Shown here piece by piece: positions 3,700 through 59,957 of a stretch of 64,000 nucleotides of DNA. Source of the stretch: an uncultured Methanosarcinales archaeon (lineage in GTDB: Archaea > Nanobdellota > Nanobdellia > Woesearchaeales > JAGVZT01). The stretch covers positions 2,707-66,706 of the forward strand of contig CAYQPU010000003.1 of assembly GCA_964419615.1 (NCBI GenBank). The letters run 5' to 3'. The position numbers and the translations under genes were made by a program. How positions within the stretch are numbered: the first letter of the stretch is position 1; every line of letters begins with the position of its first letter. Under the pieces are notes generated by a model. It ran no database searches. It was given only the letters and a program-made list of their open reading frames with translations, and had not been told where the DNA came from.

Positions 3700-4108
3700 T
3701 TTTTAAGAATAACTTAACAAAAGGGTAATATAATTGGTATATAAATCTTTCCTTATTTCATTATCCTCTAGTAATAAAAAAGGAGATACACCTTTATTTC
3801 TAGTGGAAATAATTTAATTGAAAAATTTGCTGTGGTTTTTTTCTTTATTTATATATGGAATTTGAAAATGCTGTTTGTTATTATTATTATTTTTCAATAT
3901 TGAAATATAATATAATAATATATAATATTAATTATATAATTAATAATAATAATAAACAAAAAATAAAGTTTAAATTTATTAAAAAAATAGGTTGATTTTT
4001 TTGTAATTATCTATTTCCAGTTGAAATCAAGGAGTGAGAACACAACTTAAACAAACTATATTTTTAATCATAAAAAGGCTTATATACCTATATTTCATTT
4101 GGAAGATT
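3700..4108. promoter_or_regulatory. Candidate replication origin (oriC) / cdc6 promoter region: ORB-like TTCTAGTGGAAAT and TTCCAGTTGAAAT elements flanking an extremely AT-rich palindromic stretch
   Basis: ORB-like cores at 3799-3813 and 4014-4029; 3880-3960 is near-pure A/T with inverted repeats (tttcaatattgaaa); immediately upstream of orc1/cdc6. Confidence 0.45.
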
Positions 4109-5317
4109 ATGGCTCAGAAAAACCTAGATAGGTTCTTTGAAAATTATCTTAAGAAAGAATCTTTGTTTATGAATAAAAAGGTTTTACAGAGTGCTTACAC
4201 CCCTAATAGTATTCCTCATCGAGATGAACAAATTCAAACTATGGCTGAAATCTTAGCTCCTTGTTTAAAACTTGAGAAACCAAGTAATATATTTATTTAT
4301 GGAAAGACTGGAACTGGTAAAACTGTTAGTGTTAAGTATACAACTAATAAATTAGTTGAAATAGCTAATAAGAAAAATATTGAGTTAAAATTTATTTATC
4401 TTAATTGTAAGCTTAAAAGAGTTGCTGATACAGAGTATAGACTAATTGCTCAACTTGCAAGAGATCTTGGAAAGGCAATTCCTCCAACTGGTCTTCCAAC
4501 AGATGAAGTTTATAAGATATTTTTTGAGGCGCTTGATAAAGAAGAGTGTTTAATTGTAATTGTTTTAGATGAAATAGATCAGTTAGTAAAAAAGGCAGGA
4601 GATGGTATTTTATATAATTTAACAAGAATTAATTCTGAACTTGAGAGATCTCAGATCTCTGTAGTTGGAATATCTAATGATTTAACCTTTACAGATACTT
4701 TGGATCCCAGAATTAAATCTTCATTAAGTGAAGAAGAATTAGTATTTCCTCCTTATAATGCCTTACAAATTCAAGATATTTTAAATCATAGAAAACAAAT
4801 TGCATTTAAACCAGATGTGATTGAATCTGGAGTTATTGAAAAATGTTCAGCATTTGCTGCAAGAGAACATGGGGATGCAAGAAGAGCCTTGGAATTAATG
4901 AGAGTTGCTGCTGAAATTGCTGAGAGAAAAAACCTAAATAAAGTTTCTTTGGAACATATTGATATTGCTGAAGAAAAGATTGAAAGAGATAGGGTACTAG
5001 ATTTAGTAAAAACTCAACCAAAGCAGTTTCAAGCTACATTATACAGTATTTTGATCAGTTGTTCTAAAAAAGATAAGTTAATGCTAACTGGTGAAGTTTA
5101 TGAATTTTACAAATCAATTTGTCTTAAAGTTGGAATGAGACCACTCACTCAAAGAAGAATTTCTGATATTATTGCAGAGTTGGATATGTTAGGAATTATT
5201 AATGCTAAGGTTATTTCTAAAGGGAGATATGGTAGAACTAGAGAAATTACTTTAGCTGTTCCATATTCTACTATCCCTAAAATCCAGAATATTTTACATC
5301 AGGATCTTGATTTGTGA
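4034..5317 (+). CDS. cdc6: Orc1/Cdc6 replication initiator (AAA+ plus C-terminal winged helix)
   Basis: Walker A GKTGTGKT, Walker B VLDEID; the 4034 start is GTG, real start more likely ATG at 4109 (MAQKNLDRFF). Confidence 0.9.
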   Translation: MRTQLKQTIFLIIKRLIYLYFIWKIMAQKNLDRFFENYLKKESLFMNKKVLQSAYTPNSIPHRDEQIQTMAEILAPCLKLEKPSNIFIYGKTGTGKTVSVKYTTNKLVEIANKKNIELKFIYLNCKLKRVADTEYRLIAQLARDLGKAIPPTGLPTDEVYKIFFEALDKEECLIVIVLDEIDQLVKKAGDGILYNLTRINSELERSQISVVGISNDLTFTDTLDPRIKSSLSEEELVFPPYNALQIQDILNHRKQIAFKPDVIESGVIEKCSAFAAREHGDARRALELMRVAAEIAERKNLNKVSLEHIDIAEEKIERDRVLDLVKTQPKQFQATLYSILISCSKKDKLMLTGEVYEFYKSICLKVGMRPLTQRRISDIIAELDMLGIINAKVISKGRYGRTREITLAVPYSTIPKIQNILHQDLDL

Positions 5318-17373: not shown

Positions 17374-17856
17374 CTACATTGCTAATAAATCCGGAACTTC
17401 TTCCACATAAAACCCAAAATGATTTACAAAACTTTCTACTAATTCAGGATTTTTAGACTCAATTAGTTTTAACAAGTCTGTTGTAACACAAAAAGTACAT
17501 ACTTTTACTTGTTCTCCACATAAAATACACTTTGTTGATGTCTCTTGAGCATGTTTATCCATTACTGTATCAACTAAAGGTGCAATTGAGGGAGCTCTTT
17601 CACATACCCACACTGTTAATTGTTCTTTTAGGCAATCTACACAGATTGGATTTGTGATTGAATCCTCACAACTGACACATAATGCTTCCCAATTTTGGTG
17701 TTTGTTTTCCATTTTCCCCTCATAGCTCACAAAACACCTGGGTACAGATTGATTAGAACAACAATCAAAGATTTCTGCAATCCCAGGCACCGACCCGAGC
17801 TCACATATCTTTGATATCTTTTGTGTATTTGATGGTATCCACACATAAAGATACAT
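17374..17856 (-). CDS. Cysteine-rich hypothetical protein (17 Cys in 160 aa)
   Basis: Multiple CxxC/CC pairs; locally elevated GC compared with surroundings. Confidence 0.3.
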   Translation of the reverse strand: MYLYVWIPSNTQKISKICELGSVPGIAEIFDCCSNQSVPRCFVSYEGKMENKHQNWEALCVSCEDSITNPICVDCLKEQLTVWVCERAPSIAPLVDTVMDKHAQETSTKCILCGEQVKVCTFCVTTDLLKLIESKNPELVESFVNHFGFYVEEVPDLLAM

Positions 17857-18006
17857 CTACCAGAAAGTTAAAAATAATATCTGTATGTGCAAACATAAGC
17901 TTAAAGATAATTATAAGGTATAAATACTTTTCGTAATTTTTTCCAAAAAATAATCTATATTTTTATTAAGGAAATATTTAAAAGCTATTTTGGGTTTGTT
18001 TATTAT

Positions 18007-28331: not shown

Positions 28332-29364
28332 TGTTCATAAAAATTATTTTGATTGCATTAAAATCTTTGTTTAATTGTTCTTGTACTTTTTTTGTTAATT
28401 TTCCTTTTGTTAGGTAAATTACAGGTAGTTTTTTGTTTTGACCTTGAATTAACGCTGCTGCAAGATCTGTGTCATTACTTGTTTTCTTGCTCTTTGCCTT
28501 ACAATAGTATTTTAGGTCTCCAAGCTTAGATGGAACATTAATGATTAAATCAATTTCTGAACCTTTTCTAATTATTTCTGATTTTATTATTTCAATATTT
28601 TTCTTTGAAAGAAACTTGCTTATTTGTCCAAAGAAACTATCTTTAATTGTATCATCTTCTGGTTTTAATTCTTTTTTTGGTTTTTCTACTTCTTGTTCTA
28701 TTGTTTCTTTTGCTTCTTTTTTTATTGGCACTATTTTTTCAGGTTTTATTTCTTCTTTTTGAGGTTCTGGTTTAGGTTTTGTCTGAACAGGTTGAAACAA
28801 CTCTTCAGGTCTTTGTTCTTTTTCAATTGGTTCTTTTTTAGCAATAGGTTTTTTGATTTGCTGTTCAGGTGTTTTAAACATAGACTGCAAGTGTTGTTGA
28901 GCAACATCATTTGAGATTGTATACCATTTCCAAAAAATCTCTTTATTTTCTCCTACTCTTACATTCAGAGGTTTAGCAAAATCTTTTATTCTTCTTAAAG
29001 AAACTCTTTCAATAGGTTGTAGAGCAACATCTCGAACAACTTTTTTTTCTTTAAGCATCTGCAAAGTTTGTCTATCCTTTGGATTGAGCTTATCTTTGAA
29101 TTTTTCCAGTTGGCTTTCCTGGCCTTTTATGTAATATAGGGGCGAGCCACCATACTTTAAATTAGAAACTTTTAATTCTCCCCTTGAGACCATCTCAGAA
29201 ATAATAGCTGATGCCATCAATATACTTGTATCAATTTGTTTTGAAACATGAACTGGAAGAGAAGGCCCCCTCATCCGTATAAAACTTAGAATTTTCTGTT
29301 TTTTATCCATGATTTTATAGAAGTAAATAATGTTTAAAAACCTTTGCTCTAAGGTCTCATCCAC
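28321..29364 (-). CDS. Hypothetical protein: N-terminal winged-helix-like domain, Lys/Glu/Pro-rich linker, C-terminal PD-(D/E)xK nuclease-like domain
   Basis: C-terminal GSEIDLIINVP...YYCKAKSKK resembles E-x-D...K nuclease core. Confidence 0.3.
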   Translation of the reverse strand: MDETLEQRFLNIIYFYKIMDKKQKILSFIRMRGPSLPVHVSKQIDTSILMASAIISEMVSRGELKVSNLKYGGSPLYYIKGQESQLEKFKDKLNPKDRQTLQMLKEKKVVRDVALQPIERVSLRRIKDFAKPLNVRVGENKEIFWKWYTISNDVAQQHLQSMFKTPEQQIKKPIAKKEPIEKEQRPEELFQPVQTKPKPEPQKEEIKPEKIVPIKKEAKETIEQEVEKPKKELKPEDDTIKDSFFGQISKFLSKKNIEIIKSEIIRKGSEIDLIINVPSKLGDLKYYCKAKSKKTSNDTDLAAALIQGQNKKLPVIYLTKGKLTKKVQEQLNKDFNAIKIIFMNNGD

Positions 29365-30008
29365 CTAATCTCATAATAAGTGACATCTCCTTCATCATCA
29401 ACAACACCTATTAAAAGACGCTTTTTTGTTGAGTGAGCAACTCTGTTTTTTGCAGCAAATTCATACCAAGTAAGAACATTTCCTTCATGAACTGGATAAA
29501 TAATCCACCTAGCATGATCCTCTCCTGGTTTAATTCCACGGTCATAAACTCTAAAATCTGCTCCAAATTTCAATGCAGTTTTTACAACATAACCTCTGTT
29601 CCTCATGTTCTTATAAACACAGTACCTAATCCAGAAATTTGGCTCAACTTTTCTTGCCCTTAGAATATAAGTTCTTGATGTTAGCTTTTTTTTCCTATAA
29701 TCTGTAATGACTAATTTGCCTTTTTCCATTAAAAAAAGGCCTTCACATAAAGAAAGTTGGACTTTTCCACCTTCAATTATCTTTCCAAAACAACTTTGAT
29801 TAAAAAATTCTCTTGCAGCATCACTATCTTCGGTTAGTACACGTTCTCTTGCAAAGATAGCTTTAACTATTTCTTTTTTCTTTTTAACTTGTTCAGCAGC
29901 AGATTTTTCTACATTTTTATCTGTTTTTTTAGTTGTAGCTTTTTTGGTTTTTTTAGCTACTTTCTTCTTTGTTATTTTCTTTTCAACTGCTTTCTTTTTA
30001 CGTGGCAT
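29349..30008 (-). CDS. endA: tRNA-splicing endonuclease (EndA catalytic subunit) with Lys-rich N-terminal extension
   Basis: 219 aa; C-terminal catalytic block ALKFGADFRVYDRGIKPGEDHARWIIYPV matches EndA GxDFxxY...H...K. Confidence 0.75.
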   Translation of the reverse strand: MPRKKKAVEKKITKKKVAKKTKKATTKKTDKNVEKSAAEQVKKKKEIVKAIFARERVLTEDSDAAREFFNQSCFGKIIEGGKVQLSLCEGLFLMEKGKLVITDYRKKKLTSRTYILRARKVEPNFWIRYCVYKNMRNRGYVVKTALKFGADFRVYDRGIKPGEDHARWIIYPVHEGNVLTWYEFAAKNRVAHSTKKRLLIGVVDDEGDVTYYEIRWMRP

Positions 30009-30073
30009 GTTATTTAAAAACTACTCTGAAATGCTTTATATACTTTGCTCTTTTAGTGCAAATAAGTAGGATT

Positions 30074-30215
30074 AGCTCCCATAGGCCGGTTCATGAGCCA
30101 GTTTGTTAGCTTGTTTAGAATAGTAATCTTAGATTATTATCATGATTACAAACTGTTCCTTATTGTTTCTTACGATTTTCACAGTCTCATTCACTTAATT
30201 GGCCTTTATGGAGCT
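30074..30215 (+). ncRNA. Novel structured RNA-like element, copy A (paralog of 58068-58212)
   Basis: Closing helix agctcccataggcc/ggcctttatggagct; P2 atgag/ctcat; P3 cagtttg/caaactg with 43-nt loop; conserved tcttacgat block; all three helices covary with copy B. Confidence 0.4.
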
Positions 30216-30278
30216 AATTTCCAATTATTACGTTTTGTTTTAGAAACATTTAAAAGAATATTTTGATTAATCATATAT

Positions 30279-30550
30279 GGTAAGCTAGATTGGGGGGTTA
30301 GCCGTCTCTTGTTACCATAAATCGGCTTTATGATGGAATCGAAGCTTGAGAAGAGGTAACTTTTCAAGTTGTTGGTCTTGGTTTGGACAGTGAAGTTCTG
30401 TCCTGTTGGACTTATGTTTGTAAGAATCATGTCAGGTCAGGAATGAAGCAGCATTAATTATATTCACAGGTGCTAATAGGGTAGCAGAACCAAGAAAGAA
30501 CTAAGGTAGCTGGCTTCTTGTTTGGCTATCGATTTTTGAGCGTGCTTACC
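30279..30550 (+). ncRNA. ffs: Signal recognition particle RNA (7S/SRP RNA)
   Basis: GUCAGGUCAGGAAUGAAGCAGC matches conserved SRP helix-8 motif (E. coli GUCAGGUCCGGAAGGAAGCAGC); terminal helix GGUAAGC/GCUUACC; helix-5 pairing GUCUUGGUU/AACCAAG; ~272 nt; GC above local background. Confidence 0.7.
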
Positions 30551-30557
30551 TCTTTAT

Positions 30558-57871: not shown

Positions 57872-58067
57872 TTTGGTATTATGGATGAATAATCTTATCC
57901 AAACCTCCTTTAAAAAATAAAAACAGTAATAACATACCCAAAAGAGATAATATAACAATGATAAGTGTCATGATTGATTGTTTATGACCTTCTCCTCTTT
58001 TATTCATAATATTAAACCATTTTTAAGGATATATAAGTTTTTCTAATAATACTAATACAGAATGGCT

Positions 58068-58212
58068 AGCTGTACCTGGCCTGTTCGTGAGCCAGTTTAT
58101 TTGATGTTTAATGATTTTGAATTCAAACCTAGATTCAATCTGATAAACTGTTCTTTTTTGTCTCTTACGATGAGTCAAGTCTCACTCACTCAAATCTGGC
58201 CAAGGTGCAGCT
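58068..58212 (+). ncRNA. Novel structured RNA-like element, copy B (paralog of 30074-30215)
   Basis: Closing helix agctgtacctggcc/ggccaaggtgcagct; P2 gtgag/ctcac; P3 cagtttat/ataaactg; conserved tcttacgat; compensatory changes relative to copy A in all three helices. Confidence 0.4.
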
Positions 58213-58277
58213 ATCTTATCTTATTGATATTTACTAAAACCATAACCTTTTTAAGCAAAACATTACTCCTAGTTGAT

Positions 58278-58454
58278 ATGGCAAATAATGATTTAACATG
58301 TGCATCATGTGGCATTAGAGTTACTAATGATCAGGCAACTGTTAGTTTTCCCTGCCCAAATTGTGCAAAAACAACTATTACAAGATGTAAGCATTGCAGA
58401 GAAAAGGCTAGCAGATACAAATGTACTGAATGTGGATTTGAGGGACCTAATTAA
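58278..58454 (+). CDS. Zn-ribbon protein (COG2888-like, commonly paired with EF1-beta)
   Basis: 58 aa; CASCG...CPNC...CKHC...CTECG four CxxC pairs; ORF-track N-terminal extension overlaps RNA element B and is spurious. Confidence 0.6.
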   Translation: MANNDLTCASCGIRVTNDQATVSFPCPNCAKTTITRCKHCREKASRYKCTECGFEGPN

Positions 58455-58790: not shown

Positions 58791-59957
58791 ATGAAAGTAC
58801 AAGCAGAAATTTTCAATGATCTCTATTTAGGATTCAGAAGAACTCCTAATTGGGAGAATGATCCAAGTCAATTATTTAATGATATTACTAGTCTCGTAGT
58901 TTTTGGGTTGTCAGAATGCATTTGGAGATGCTGTCATTGTGCAATTGATTATGATTTTTTTGAAAATGGAGAAGGTGCAACAGTTATGGATGAGGATGTA
59001 GCCTTATCTTTGGTTGAAATGGTACCAAAACTTCAACAAACCACAGCAGCTGGAACTGAATTTCCATTGCTAGATGAAAGCATTCGAACAAATGCAATTA
59101 GTAATAAACTAATTCCAAAAAAAATTAATAAAAAATTACATGGAATTGATTATGCAGAACAGTTGCTTGGTGATATGGTAGATCATGTGTGGAGAGACTG
59201 GGGGATTATTGGACAAATGCTTCCAAAAATCCGAGCTACAAAACATGAACGGTTTGTTCGAGTCCCGACAAATGGCTGGGTATTTCCATGGCTTTGGCAT
59301 GAAGGAATAGACATTTTTGATAGTTATTCAGATGATGATTTAAGACAATCTTTGTTATATCAGACTTTGGAGAAATATATTGGAGTTACTTTTGTAGTAT
59401 CCATAGGTCCATTTAATCATGTTGAATATATCAAAAGAAATGTTGGAAATAAAGAGCAGTTGACAATGGAGCGAAGAATAACAGAGTTTAATGAAGTCGC
59501 TGCTTTAATTAAAGAAGATTATCAAGATATTCAAGGTAAACCTGAGGGTGCAGTAACACTTGGATTAGGTTATATTTTTACCCATGCTCAACCAAGTGGT
59601 GTTAAGATTGATGATATTGATTGGGATCAAGTTGATAAAGAAATGGGTGAATTTTGGGGAATTGAAAATCCTCCTTCTAATCTATTAGATAGAAATGAGG
59701 TTGTGCAGTTCATAAGGTCATGGGGGTACGATTATGAACTTGAAAAGCAGGAAGTGTATTTTGAGGGAGAAGCAAAACAGTTTCCTTGGGCTTATAAAGG
59801 ACACAGAACCACAAAATTGGGACCTCATGAGTCTTATCTAGTTGAGTTATATGCAGTACCTGTTGCTGATGGAAAAACAGTTTGGTTTTTTGACAATACT
59901 GTTGACATGTATGGACCGTGTAAAGAGAATGCACATTTTGCATTAAGATTTAATTAA
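58791..59957 (+). CDS. Hypothetical protein
   Basis: 388 aa; CIWRCCHCAID Cys cluster; no family. Confidence 0.3.
   Translation: MKVQAEIFNDLYLGFRRTPNWENDPSQLFNDITSLVVFGLSECIWRCCHCAIDYDFFENGEGATVMDEDVALSLVEMVPKLQQTTAAGTEFPLLDESIRTNAISNKLIPKKINKKLHGIDYAEQLLGDMVDHVWRDWGIIGQMLPKIRATKHERFVRVPTNGWVFPWLWHEGIDIFDSYSDDDLRQSLLYQTLEKYIGVTFVVSIGPFNHVEYIKRNVGNKEQLTMERRITEFNEVAALIKEDYQDIQGKPEGAVTLGLGYIFTHAQPSGVKIDDIDWDQVDKEMGEFWGIENPPSNLLDRNEVVQFIRSWGYDYELEKQEVYFEGEAKQFPWAYKGHRTTKLGPHESYLVELYAVPVADGKTVWFFDNTVDMYGPCKENAHFALRFN

Follow-up and report, generated by a model that had tools for sequence, protein, structure and literature searches.

Two similar segments of about 145 nt, here called A and B, lie in separate intergenic regions of the window (the whole 64-kb stretch of DNA analysed here, which derives from a Woesearchaeota (DPANN) genome), and a preliminary description of the locus had interpreted them as paralogous structured RNAs held together by three covarying helices, P1, P2 and P3. 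Are these elements genes for an RNA, or are they copies of a repeat whose paired ends are maintained for another reason? To address this question we considered the structure of A and B, their distribution among related genomes, and the contents of the corresponding sites where an element is absent. The closest other species, SuakinDeep_MAG79_5 (GCA_018263355.1; EndA 89% and EF-1-beta 84% identical), serves throughout as the sister genome.

Two related elements in divergent promoter spacers

Both elements were recovered within 2 nt of their originally proposed positions (30072-30217 and 58066-58214, both on the + strand), and a full-length alignment supported their homology, with a hairpin architecture common to the two. 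Their identity, initially given as ~75%, was found to be 65-72%, corresponding to 72% over 123 nt by blastn and to 65% over all aligned columns. The elements, their parts and the adjacent promoter motifs are as follows.

30034-30043, - strand: TATA box TTTATATA of EndA, ~27-31 nt upstream of the start codon at 30008
30072-30217, + strand: element A, full repeat copy of 146 nt, between the EndA promoter and the SRP RNA promoter
30073-30087, + strand: 5' arm of P1 in A, terminal inverted repeat TAGCTCCCATAGGCC, partner of 30201-30216
30089-30098, + strand: 5' strand of P2 in A, GTTCATGAGC, which only A and B have; in the sister-genome copies either missing or without a pairing partner
30099-30155, + strand: P3 hairpin of A, CAGTTTGT ... 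ACAAACTG, with an AT-rich, variable loop and a stem that is near-invariant in 5/5 copies
30156-30177, + strand: conserved unpaired block of A, TTCCTTATTGTTTCTTACGAT, belonging to the family signature
30184-30194, + strand: 3' strand of P2 in A, inside AGTCTCATTCAC
30201-30216, + strand: 3' arm of P1 in A, GGCCTTTATGGAGCTA
30247-30256, + strand: TATA box ATTTAAAAG of the SRP RNA gene, conserved in sister-genome contig L008
58029-58038, - strand: TATA box ATATATAAG of a 42-aa ORF, ~26 nt upstream of its start at 58007
58066-58214, + strand: element B, full repeat copy of 149 nt, an insertion relative to the sister species
58067-58081, + strand: 5' arm of P1 in B, TAGCTGTACCTGGCC
58093-58150, + strand: P3 hairpin of B, CAGTTTAT ... 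ATAAACTG, with a variable loop
58169-58182, + strand: internal segment of B, GATGAGTCAAGTCT, 12 of whose 14 bases equal the sister-genome outer terminal repeat GATGAAGTCAAGTTT
58198-58213, + strand: 3' arm of P1 in B, GGCCAAGGTGCAGCTA

Element A is flanked on its left by the gene for the tRNA-splicing endonuclease EndA (29349-30008, minus strand; PF02778 and PF01974), the homologues of which are labelled Woesearchaeota or Nanoarchaeota by their sources, and on its right by the SRP RNA gene (30278-30551; Rfam). Element B lies between the 42-aa minus-strand ORF starting at 58007 and an aS21-type zinc-ribbon gene, which is followed by EF-1-beta (58278 onward). The distances previously noted on the right-hand side were confirmed, with A ending 61 nt before the SRP RNA start at 30278 and B ending 64 nt before the ATG at 58278. 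A position ~65 nt upstream of a + strand gene had, however, been treated as meaningful in itself, and the minus-strand start codons proved to be equally far away (59-64 nt to the left starts, 61-64 nt to the right starts). Each element is thus the midpoint of a divergent-promoter spacer, and since an insertion midway between divergent core promoters falls at this distance from both genes, the spacing is uninformative with respect to orientation or function. The TATA boxes on the 5' side of the elements lie 26-31 nt from the minus-strand start codons, fitting leaderless archaeal mRNAs. The EndA box is retained in the sister genome, which lacks element A, and the box at 58029-58038 is identical at the sister species' empty B site, from which it follows that these boxes predate the insertion.

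Element A is identical in six contigs of the same species, with contigs drawn from several metagenomes, and B is carried by every sampled contig of the window's species, i.e. it is fixed, such that nothing indicates that the element moved recently in the genome of the window. A coding role was rejected, as the ORFs overlapping A and B occupy different frames, that of B being interrupted by a stop, and no conserved ORF is present. Public gene calls (L027, L028 and L029) stretch the 58-aa aS21-type zinc-ribbon gene to 130 aa (58062-58454), with an ATG inside B; this 130-aa "aS21" ORF is an annotation artefact, a mis-call resulting from the insertion of B.

Folding, covariation and comparison with known RNA classes

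RNAalifold recovered P1, P2 and P3 from the alignment of A and B, accounting for 29 of 33 predicted pairs, the remaining four forming a small local hairpin. In five pairs both partners differ between A and B yet still pair; three of these belong to P1, one to P2 (from A-U to G-C) and one to P3 (from G-C to A-U). No pair was broken. Further, A and B fold better than shuffled sequences (z = -5.0 and -6.0), none of 200 shuffles being as good. Compensation in all three helices, as had been proposed, therefore stands for the comparison of A with B but does not extend evenly to the five copies now available, which include three from the sister genome described below. Across these, 8 of 13 P1 pairs are changed on both sides, as opposed to 1 of 8 in P3, a nearly invariant helix whose constancy says little either way, while P2 is backed by a single pair and is absent in 3/5 copies, its 5' strand missing from those of the sister genome. 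Taking all helices together, 91% of cells are paired in the five copies versus 32-42% when partners are slid, the slid control being the fairer comparison for an alignment of five sequences only that was fitted to the model and so favours the structure. No strand bias was apparent across the five copies (5 G.U versus 5 A.C cells); a + strand that folds better than the minus strand, by 6-7 kcal/mol, was seen for A and B alone.

The single-stranded blocks said to be conserved between A and B are exact and not due to chance: TCTTACGAT-N6-AGTCTCAYTCACT occurs in the window only at A and B, with 0 occurrences expected, and exact matches to GTTCRTGAGCCAGTTT in the window are likewise confined to A and B. 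Not all of this sequence is unpaired, however, since AAACTG forms part of the 3' strand of P3, and CTCA part of that of P2. The middle of the terminal repeat is less well conserved than the internal blocks.

Consistent with the earlier statement that the elements match no known RNA family, Rfam yielded nothing for A or B at the gathering threshold, either for the window or in local searches, and ARAGORN predicted no tRNA. HEARO and other Rfam models also gave no match to A or B, and the best sub-threshold match was to Y_RNA (RF00019), for copy A only (16 bits versus a threshold of 38; E = 1.2). Several specific classes were considered and rejected. A tRNA, including intron-containing or permuted forms, was dismissed on the basis of a hand-threaded cloverleaf with no T-arm or D-arm (B has a 7-bp acceptor-like end) and of the negative ARAGORN and Rfam results. 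A bulge-helix-bulge substrate for the adjacent EndA was discounted because P1 is a near-continuous helix without 3-nt bulges 4 bp apart. For C/D, H/ACA, 5S and Y RNAs, no boxes were seen and the 16-bit Y_RNA match was the only one obtained.

A repeat family in the sister genome

The covariance-model search suggested in the preliminary description, using a model built from A and B, led to three further copies, all in the sister genome. These are listed below together with a window site that corresponds to one of them.

L008 20026-20168 (= L015): copy 1, covariance model from A and B
L013 239-381: copy 2, covariance model from A and B
L021 15736-15882: copy 3, covariance model from A and B
Window 17956-17964, no strand assigned: empty target site TATATTTTT, present as a single copy upstream of a ThiS-like gene

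Against the models, A scored 165.5 bits (model R1) and 145 bits (model R2), and B 172.5 bits (R1). The five copies thus comprise two in the 64-kb window, two in 40 kb of sister contig, and the L013 copy, which was found through a signature scan; a third copy in the window was not found with the more sensitive model R2 and filters off. All five match a family signature, AAACTGTT-N10-TNTNACNAT-N7-GTCT-NN-YTCA. Copy lengths are 146, 149, ~190 and ~224 nt, and the copies are non-coding.

The sister-genome copies differ from A and B in that the core is embedded in a longer unit, with 180-215 nt between repeat cores. Each of the three is bounded by an outer inverted repeat, AGTCAAGT...ACTTGACT, of at least 14 bp (AGTCAAGTTTGATG / CATCAAACTTGACT), and the family displays two types of end, a GATGAAGTCAAGTTTGATG-type and a TAGCTCC/TAGCTG-type. 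P1 still covaries in the sister-genome copies, where it lies inside the outer repeat. Also identified were direct repeats of 8-9 bp flanking each of these copies (CTTTTAGTA/CTTTTAGTA, TATATGTGG/TATATGAGG and TTTGTTTC/TTTGTTTC, matching at 9/9, 8/9 and 8/8 positions). For A and B, the only candidate duplication is a TA at either end, inseparable from an extension of the inverted repeat, so that the duplication there would be either TA or absent. The preliminary description had set a match to a miniature inverted-repeat element (MITE) or terminal-inverted-repeat (TIR) family against its RNA interpretation; the MITE signature is indeed present, as TIRs and 8-9-bp target-site duplications in the sister genome, but no named TIR family was matched.

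Copies L013 and L008 are unlinked and 97-98% identical, with all other pairs being 56-66% identical in a star-like pattern in which B is not nearer to A than the sister-genome copies are. Four of the five lie in divergent-promoter spacers, the L013 copy being located downstream of a convergent MutS gene. Four public contigs were found to end in or at repeats (L007 stops inside A, L022 and L023 stop within the outer repeat, and L009 stops in the L008 spacer insert described below), as multi-copy repeats break assemblies. A motif of the AGTCAA type is found repeatedly: the outer repeats contain it, the L013 and L008 copies carry it in an additional hairpin, and B has it internally (GATGAGTCAAGTCT). 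From its sequence, it could represent a repeated transposase-binding site.

Searches for the family in larger collections produced no confirmed copy beyond the sister genome when the five-copy signature was applied to the JGI metagenome collection and IMG/VR, where two metagenome matches were attributed to chance, one of them lying inside an ABC-ATPase gene. An earlier, stricter signature had been applied to species-representative genomes (596 Gb), the metagenome collection and IMG/VR, with zero matches in the metagenome collection. A Bathyarchaeia signature match in genome_contigs was not confirmed by the covariance model. The signature was unmatched in viral, phage and plasmid collections, and copies were not found in ~85 kb of more distant Woesearchaeota.

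Filled and empty sites in related genomes

Three comparisons of filled with empty sites were obtained, the five copies occupying five different loci in two species. For B, the interval between identical anchors (left ATATATAAGTTTTTCTAATA, right AAAACCATAA) is 187 nt in the window versus 43 nt in L021, L022 and L023 of the sister lineage, lengths for this site and for the one upstream of the ThiS-like gene being bases counted between exact anchors, and the extra segment runs from P1 arm to P1 arm. The reciprocal case is provided by the site upstream of the ThiS-like gene, which measures 291 nt in L008 versus 63 nt in the window; in L008 a 224-nt family member lies between the duplicated 9-mers TATATGTGG and TATATGAGG. 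The A site is empty in L017, a more distant relative (EndA 78%), in which SRP RNA and EndA are divergent and separated by a 107-nt spacer.

In the sister genome (L008), the same EndA and SRP RNA promoters are conserved and flank a different insert of ~330 nt, which shares with A one 16-nt match (E = 0.003) and a weaker match to its 3' end. This insert, at L008 9600-9960 (minus strand), opens with AAGTCAACT, carries an inverted copy, AGTTGACTT, ~190 nt on, and closes with AACTTGAC. Its core-like pieces are permuted, a 3'-arm-like TTATGGGGCTAAC lying upstream of a 5'-arm-like GCCCCATGTAACCTGACCAGTTTGTTAACTTG, and the insert may be made up of one or two further members of the same TIR superfamily.

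Origin and maintenance of the elements

Given the insertion polymorphism between species, the TIRs and 8-9-bp duplications of the sister-genome copies, and the multi-copy behaviour of the family, A and B are probably old, diverged copies of a new MITE-like family, that is, of small, non-coding, non-autonomous DNA elements, and we consider it likely that the family is restricted to one Woesearchaeota clade. All copies fall within the size range of MITEs (50-800 bp) and lack coding capacity, and their TIRs are in keeping with the 10-15 bp or more typical of such elements, the P1 ends of A and B being imperfect repeats of 14-15 bp and the insertion boundaries of B coinciding with P1. Copies are also unlinked, and present or absent between related genomes. 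A cognate IS or transposase was not detected in the 64-kb window and annotated loci, where neither the scanned ORFs of the window nor the annotations of the fetched loci included a transposase or autonomous partner with matching ends.

Under such a MITE-like origin, the 14-15-bp terminal helix P1 would be the element's terminal inverted repeat, and the conserved internal blocks, including the AGTC-type motifs, would probably be sites for a transposase supplied in trans. Copies would persist only where they are harmless, which in a genome this compact means the midpoint of divergent core promoters, ~60 nt from each start. Active master copies would have to keep their arms complementary, both for recognition by the same enzyme and for hairpin formation, and because of this requirement the arms would co-vary as sublineages diverge, yielding the covariation seen in P1. 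The hairpin would be kept for transposition and a function as RNA would not be needed. The preliminary description had argued from covariation to a functional transcribed RNA as opposed to a decaying repeat; we agree that the elements are not simply decaying, but the further step to a functional transcribed RNA gene is unsupported. More generally, compensatory change in a terminal helix should be read with caution, as it can stem from a mobile inverted repeat and not from an RNA gene.

Were A and B instead two paralogous genes, each with its own promoter, that encode a novel structured small RNA acting in trans, their strong folding z-scores, the five compensatory pairs between them, the P1 covariation in five copies and the conserved unpaired blocks would all be accounted for, as would the better folding of the + strand of A and B; moreover, ~33 nt before each 5' end lies the centre of a TATA box that could drive transcription in both directions. 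We nevertheless judge this interpretation improbable. Orthologues are absent at the syntenic loci, the B site being empty in the sister species and the A site either empty (L017) or occupied by another insert (L008), and the sister-genome copies occupy different loci, where they show TIRs and target duplications. These copies lack P2, no strand bias extends to the family as a whole, a T-run does not consistently follow the 3' end, and Rfam is unmatched. The upstream TATA boxes, for their part, suit the leaderless minus-strand genes and were in place before the insertion. Recruitment by the host of A and B as regulatory palindromes at the DNA level, whether as insulators, protein-binding sites or cruciforms between divergent promoters, would agree with the location of 4/5 copies in such spacers, with the 59-64 nt separating A and B from the starts on both sides, and with the fixation of B in the species. 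The same genes of the sister species work without the element, however, the L013 copy lies downstream of the convergent MutS gene, and purifying selection against insertion elsewhere in a compact genome explains the placement equally well, which together make this proposal a very remote one.

Several properties of the family do not fit a textbook MITE, namely the conservation of the internal blocks, the occurrence of the core both with and without an outer TIR shell, and the covarying internal P1. Internal-block conservation is a pattern that would be expected of a functional RNA or a protein-binding module, and the covariation of P1 where it is internal, in the sister genome, implies that the hairpin is selected for something beyond end recognition. 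These properties would be accommodated by a mobile element with a functional RNA or single-strand module as its conserved core, an arrangement that we think unlikely. Such a module might, with similarly low probability, be an orphaned guide or regulatory RNA encoded by a transposon, comparable to omega RNA or IS110 bridge RNA, or a hairpin of a single-stranded transposition intermediate. In its favour, the same core is bare in the window and enclosed by a different outer TIR shell in the sister genome, where P1 covaries despite its internal position, the unpaired core blocks are the best-conserved parts, and the L008 EndA-SRP spacer holds the permuted core-like pieces TTATGGGGCTAAC and GCCCCATGTAACCTGACCAGTTTGTTAACTTG. 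Genes for TnpB, IscB, an IS110 recombinase or a reverse transcriptase are, on the other hand, absent near every copy; HEARO and other Rfam models are unmatched, strand bias is absent, and the 8-9-bp target duplications point to an ordinary DDE-type double-strand mechanism. We therefore regard it as doubtful that the ~145-nt core is a mobile structured RNA or obligatory hairpin acting in its own mobilisation or in regulation of neighbouring promoters. If it were, the permuted core fragments of L008 would hint at a circular intermediate; the family would bear on transposon-borne RNAs in archaea only if the core is an expressed RNA.

Comparison with known repeat families

MITEs have been reported in 20% of archaeal genomes, and one Woesearchaea genome is among the densest in MITEs, with 105 per Mb (PMC11602168). 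The present family resembles prokaryotic MITEs in being 146-224 bp long, non-coding, intergenic, multi-copy, lineage-specific and polymorphic for presence or absence, with TIRs of 14-20 bp and, in the sister-genome copies, 8-9-bp duplications. Sulfolobus elements SM1-SM4 are an example of such prokaryotic MITEs. Unlike MITEs, the family has no identified cognate IS or transposase, and A and B have no demonstrable duplication; in contrast to many MITE families, conservation is higher in its internal core than in the terminal repeat. The core also occurs with and without the outer TIR shell. Assignment to the IS200/IS605-derived palindrome-associated elements (PATEs), which have subterminal hairpins and neither terminal inverted repeats nor target duplication, was rejected given the TIRs and 8-9-bp duplications of the sister-genome copies.

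Among bacterial structured palindromic repeats, ERIC/IRU, Correia/NEMIS, RUP and BOX elements are similar in being intergenic repeats of ~100-150 nt whose long imperfect hairpin is maintained by compensatory changes, and in these families such changes led to interpretations at the level of RNA. Correia elements duplicate TA. These repeats are usually present in tens to hundreds of copies and, in contrast to the family described here, are bacterial and unrelated to it in sequence. Y RNA (RF00019) has a comparable size (~100-150 nt) and layout, with a terminal helix of 5' and 3' ends around an internal loop and a hairpin, but the present element is mobile and its similarity is confined to copy A, at 16 bits versus 38. 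The omega RNAs of TnpB and IscB and the bridge RNA of IS110 likewise represent ~150-nt structured non-coding modules of mobile elements; they are encoded beside their nuclease or recombinase gene, whereas the family here has no adjacent gene of this kind and is unmatched in Rfam. IS200/IS605 and IS110 elements are not known to produce 8-9-bp duplications.

If A and B do belong to a MITE family, this would account both for contig breaks in Woesearchaeota assemblies and for the recurrent 130-aa "aS21" mis-call. The insertion would also provide a concrete, datable marker for comparing close DPANN genomes.

Other features of the window and its relatives

Additional observations were made on the window and on related loci. 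Origin-recognition-box-like inverted repeats (TTTCCAGTTGAAAT / ATTTCTAGTGGAAAT; 3788-4068) lie just upstream of an Orc1/Cdc6 gene (4109-5317; Cdc6_C, Cdc6_lid and AAA domains), which is followed by the genes for the small and large subunits of PolD; this region is probably a replication origin. A non-coding block conserved in the two species (window 17700-17900, minus strand; L008 20200-20440), ...GTGAGCTCGGGTCGGTGCCTGGGATTGCAGAAATCTTTGATTG...CCCAGGTGTTTTGTGAGCTATGAGGGG, includes a GCCTGGG/CCCAGG helix and extends over the 5' end of a 160-aa cysteine-rich ORF (17374-17856), the AUG-proximal part of which is doubtful. The block had no match in Rfam and may be a structured RNA or leader. No tRNA genes were detected in the 64-kb window by ARAGORN or Rfam (to E = 0.5), where a few would be expected by chance, or by ARAGORN in ~80 kb of related loci (L001, L008, L010 and L012), and the tRNAs of this lineage may carry introns or cluster elsewhere.

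Downstream of EF-1-beta, a 388-aa ORF (58791-59957) matches only its own fragment among 5.8 billion proteins, and a 382-aa ORF in which no Pfam domain is recognised occupies the corresponding position in the sister genome. Between SRP RNA and IleRS, the window holds a cluster of secreted or toxin-like ORFs (30558-31352 and 31573-34375; SpvB and TEN_YD-shell in matching contigs) that includes a 300-nt direct repeat (32498-32797 / 33992-34291; 82% identical). The sister genome is without this cluster, and its IleRS directly adjoins SRP RNA. Finally, the sister genome's MutS-like gene convergent with the L013 copy (L013 476-4249, minus strand) encodes 1257 aa, and its ATPase domain appears, from the translation, to contain an intein or homing-endonuclease insert.
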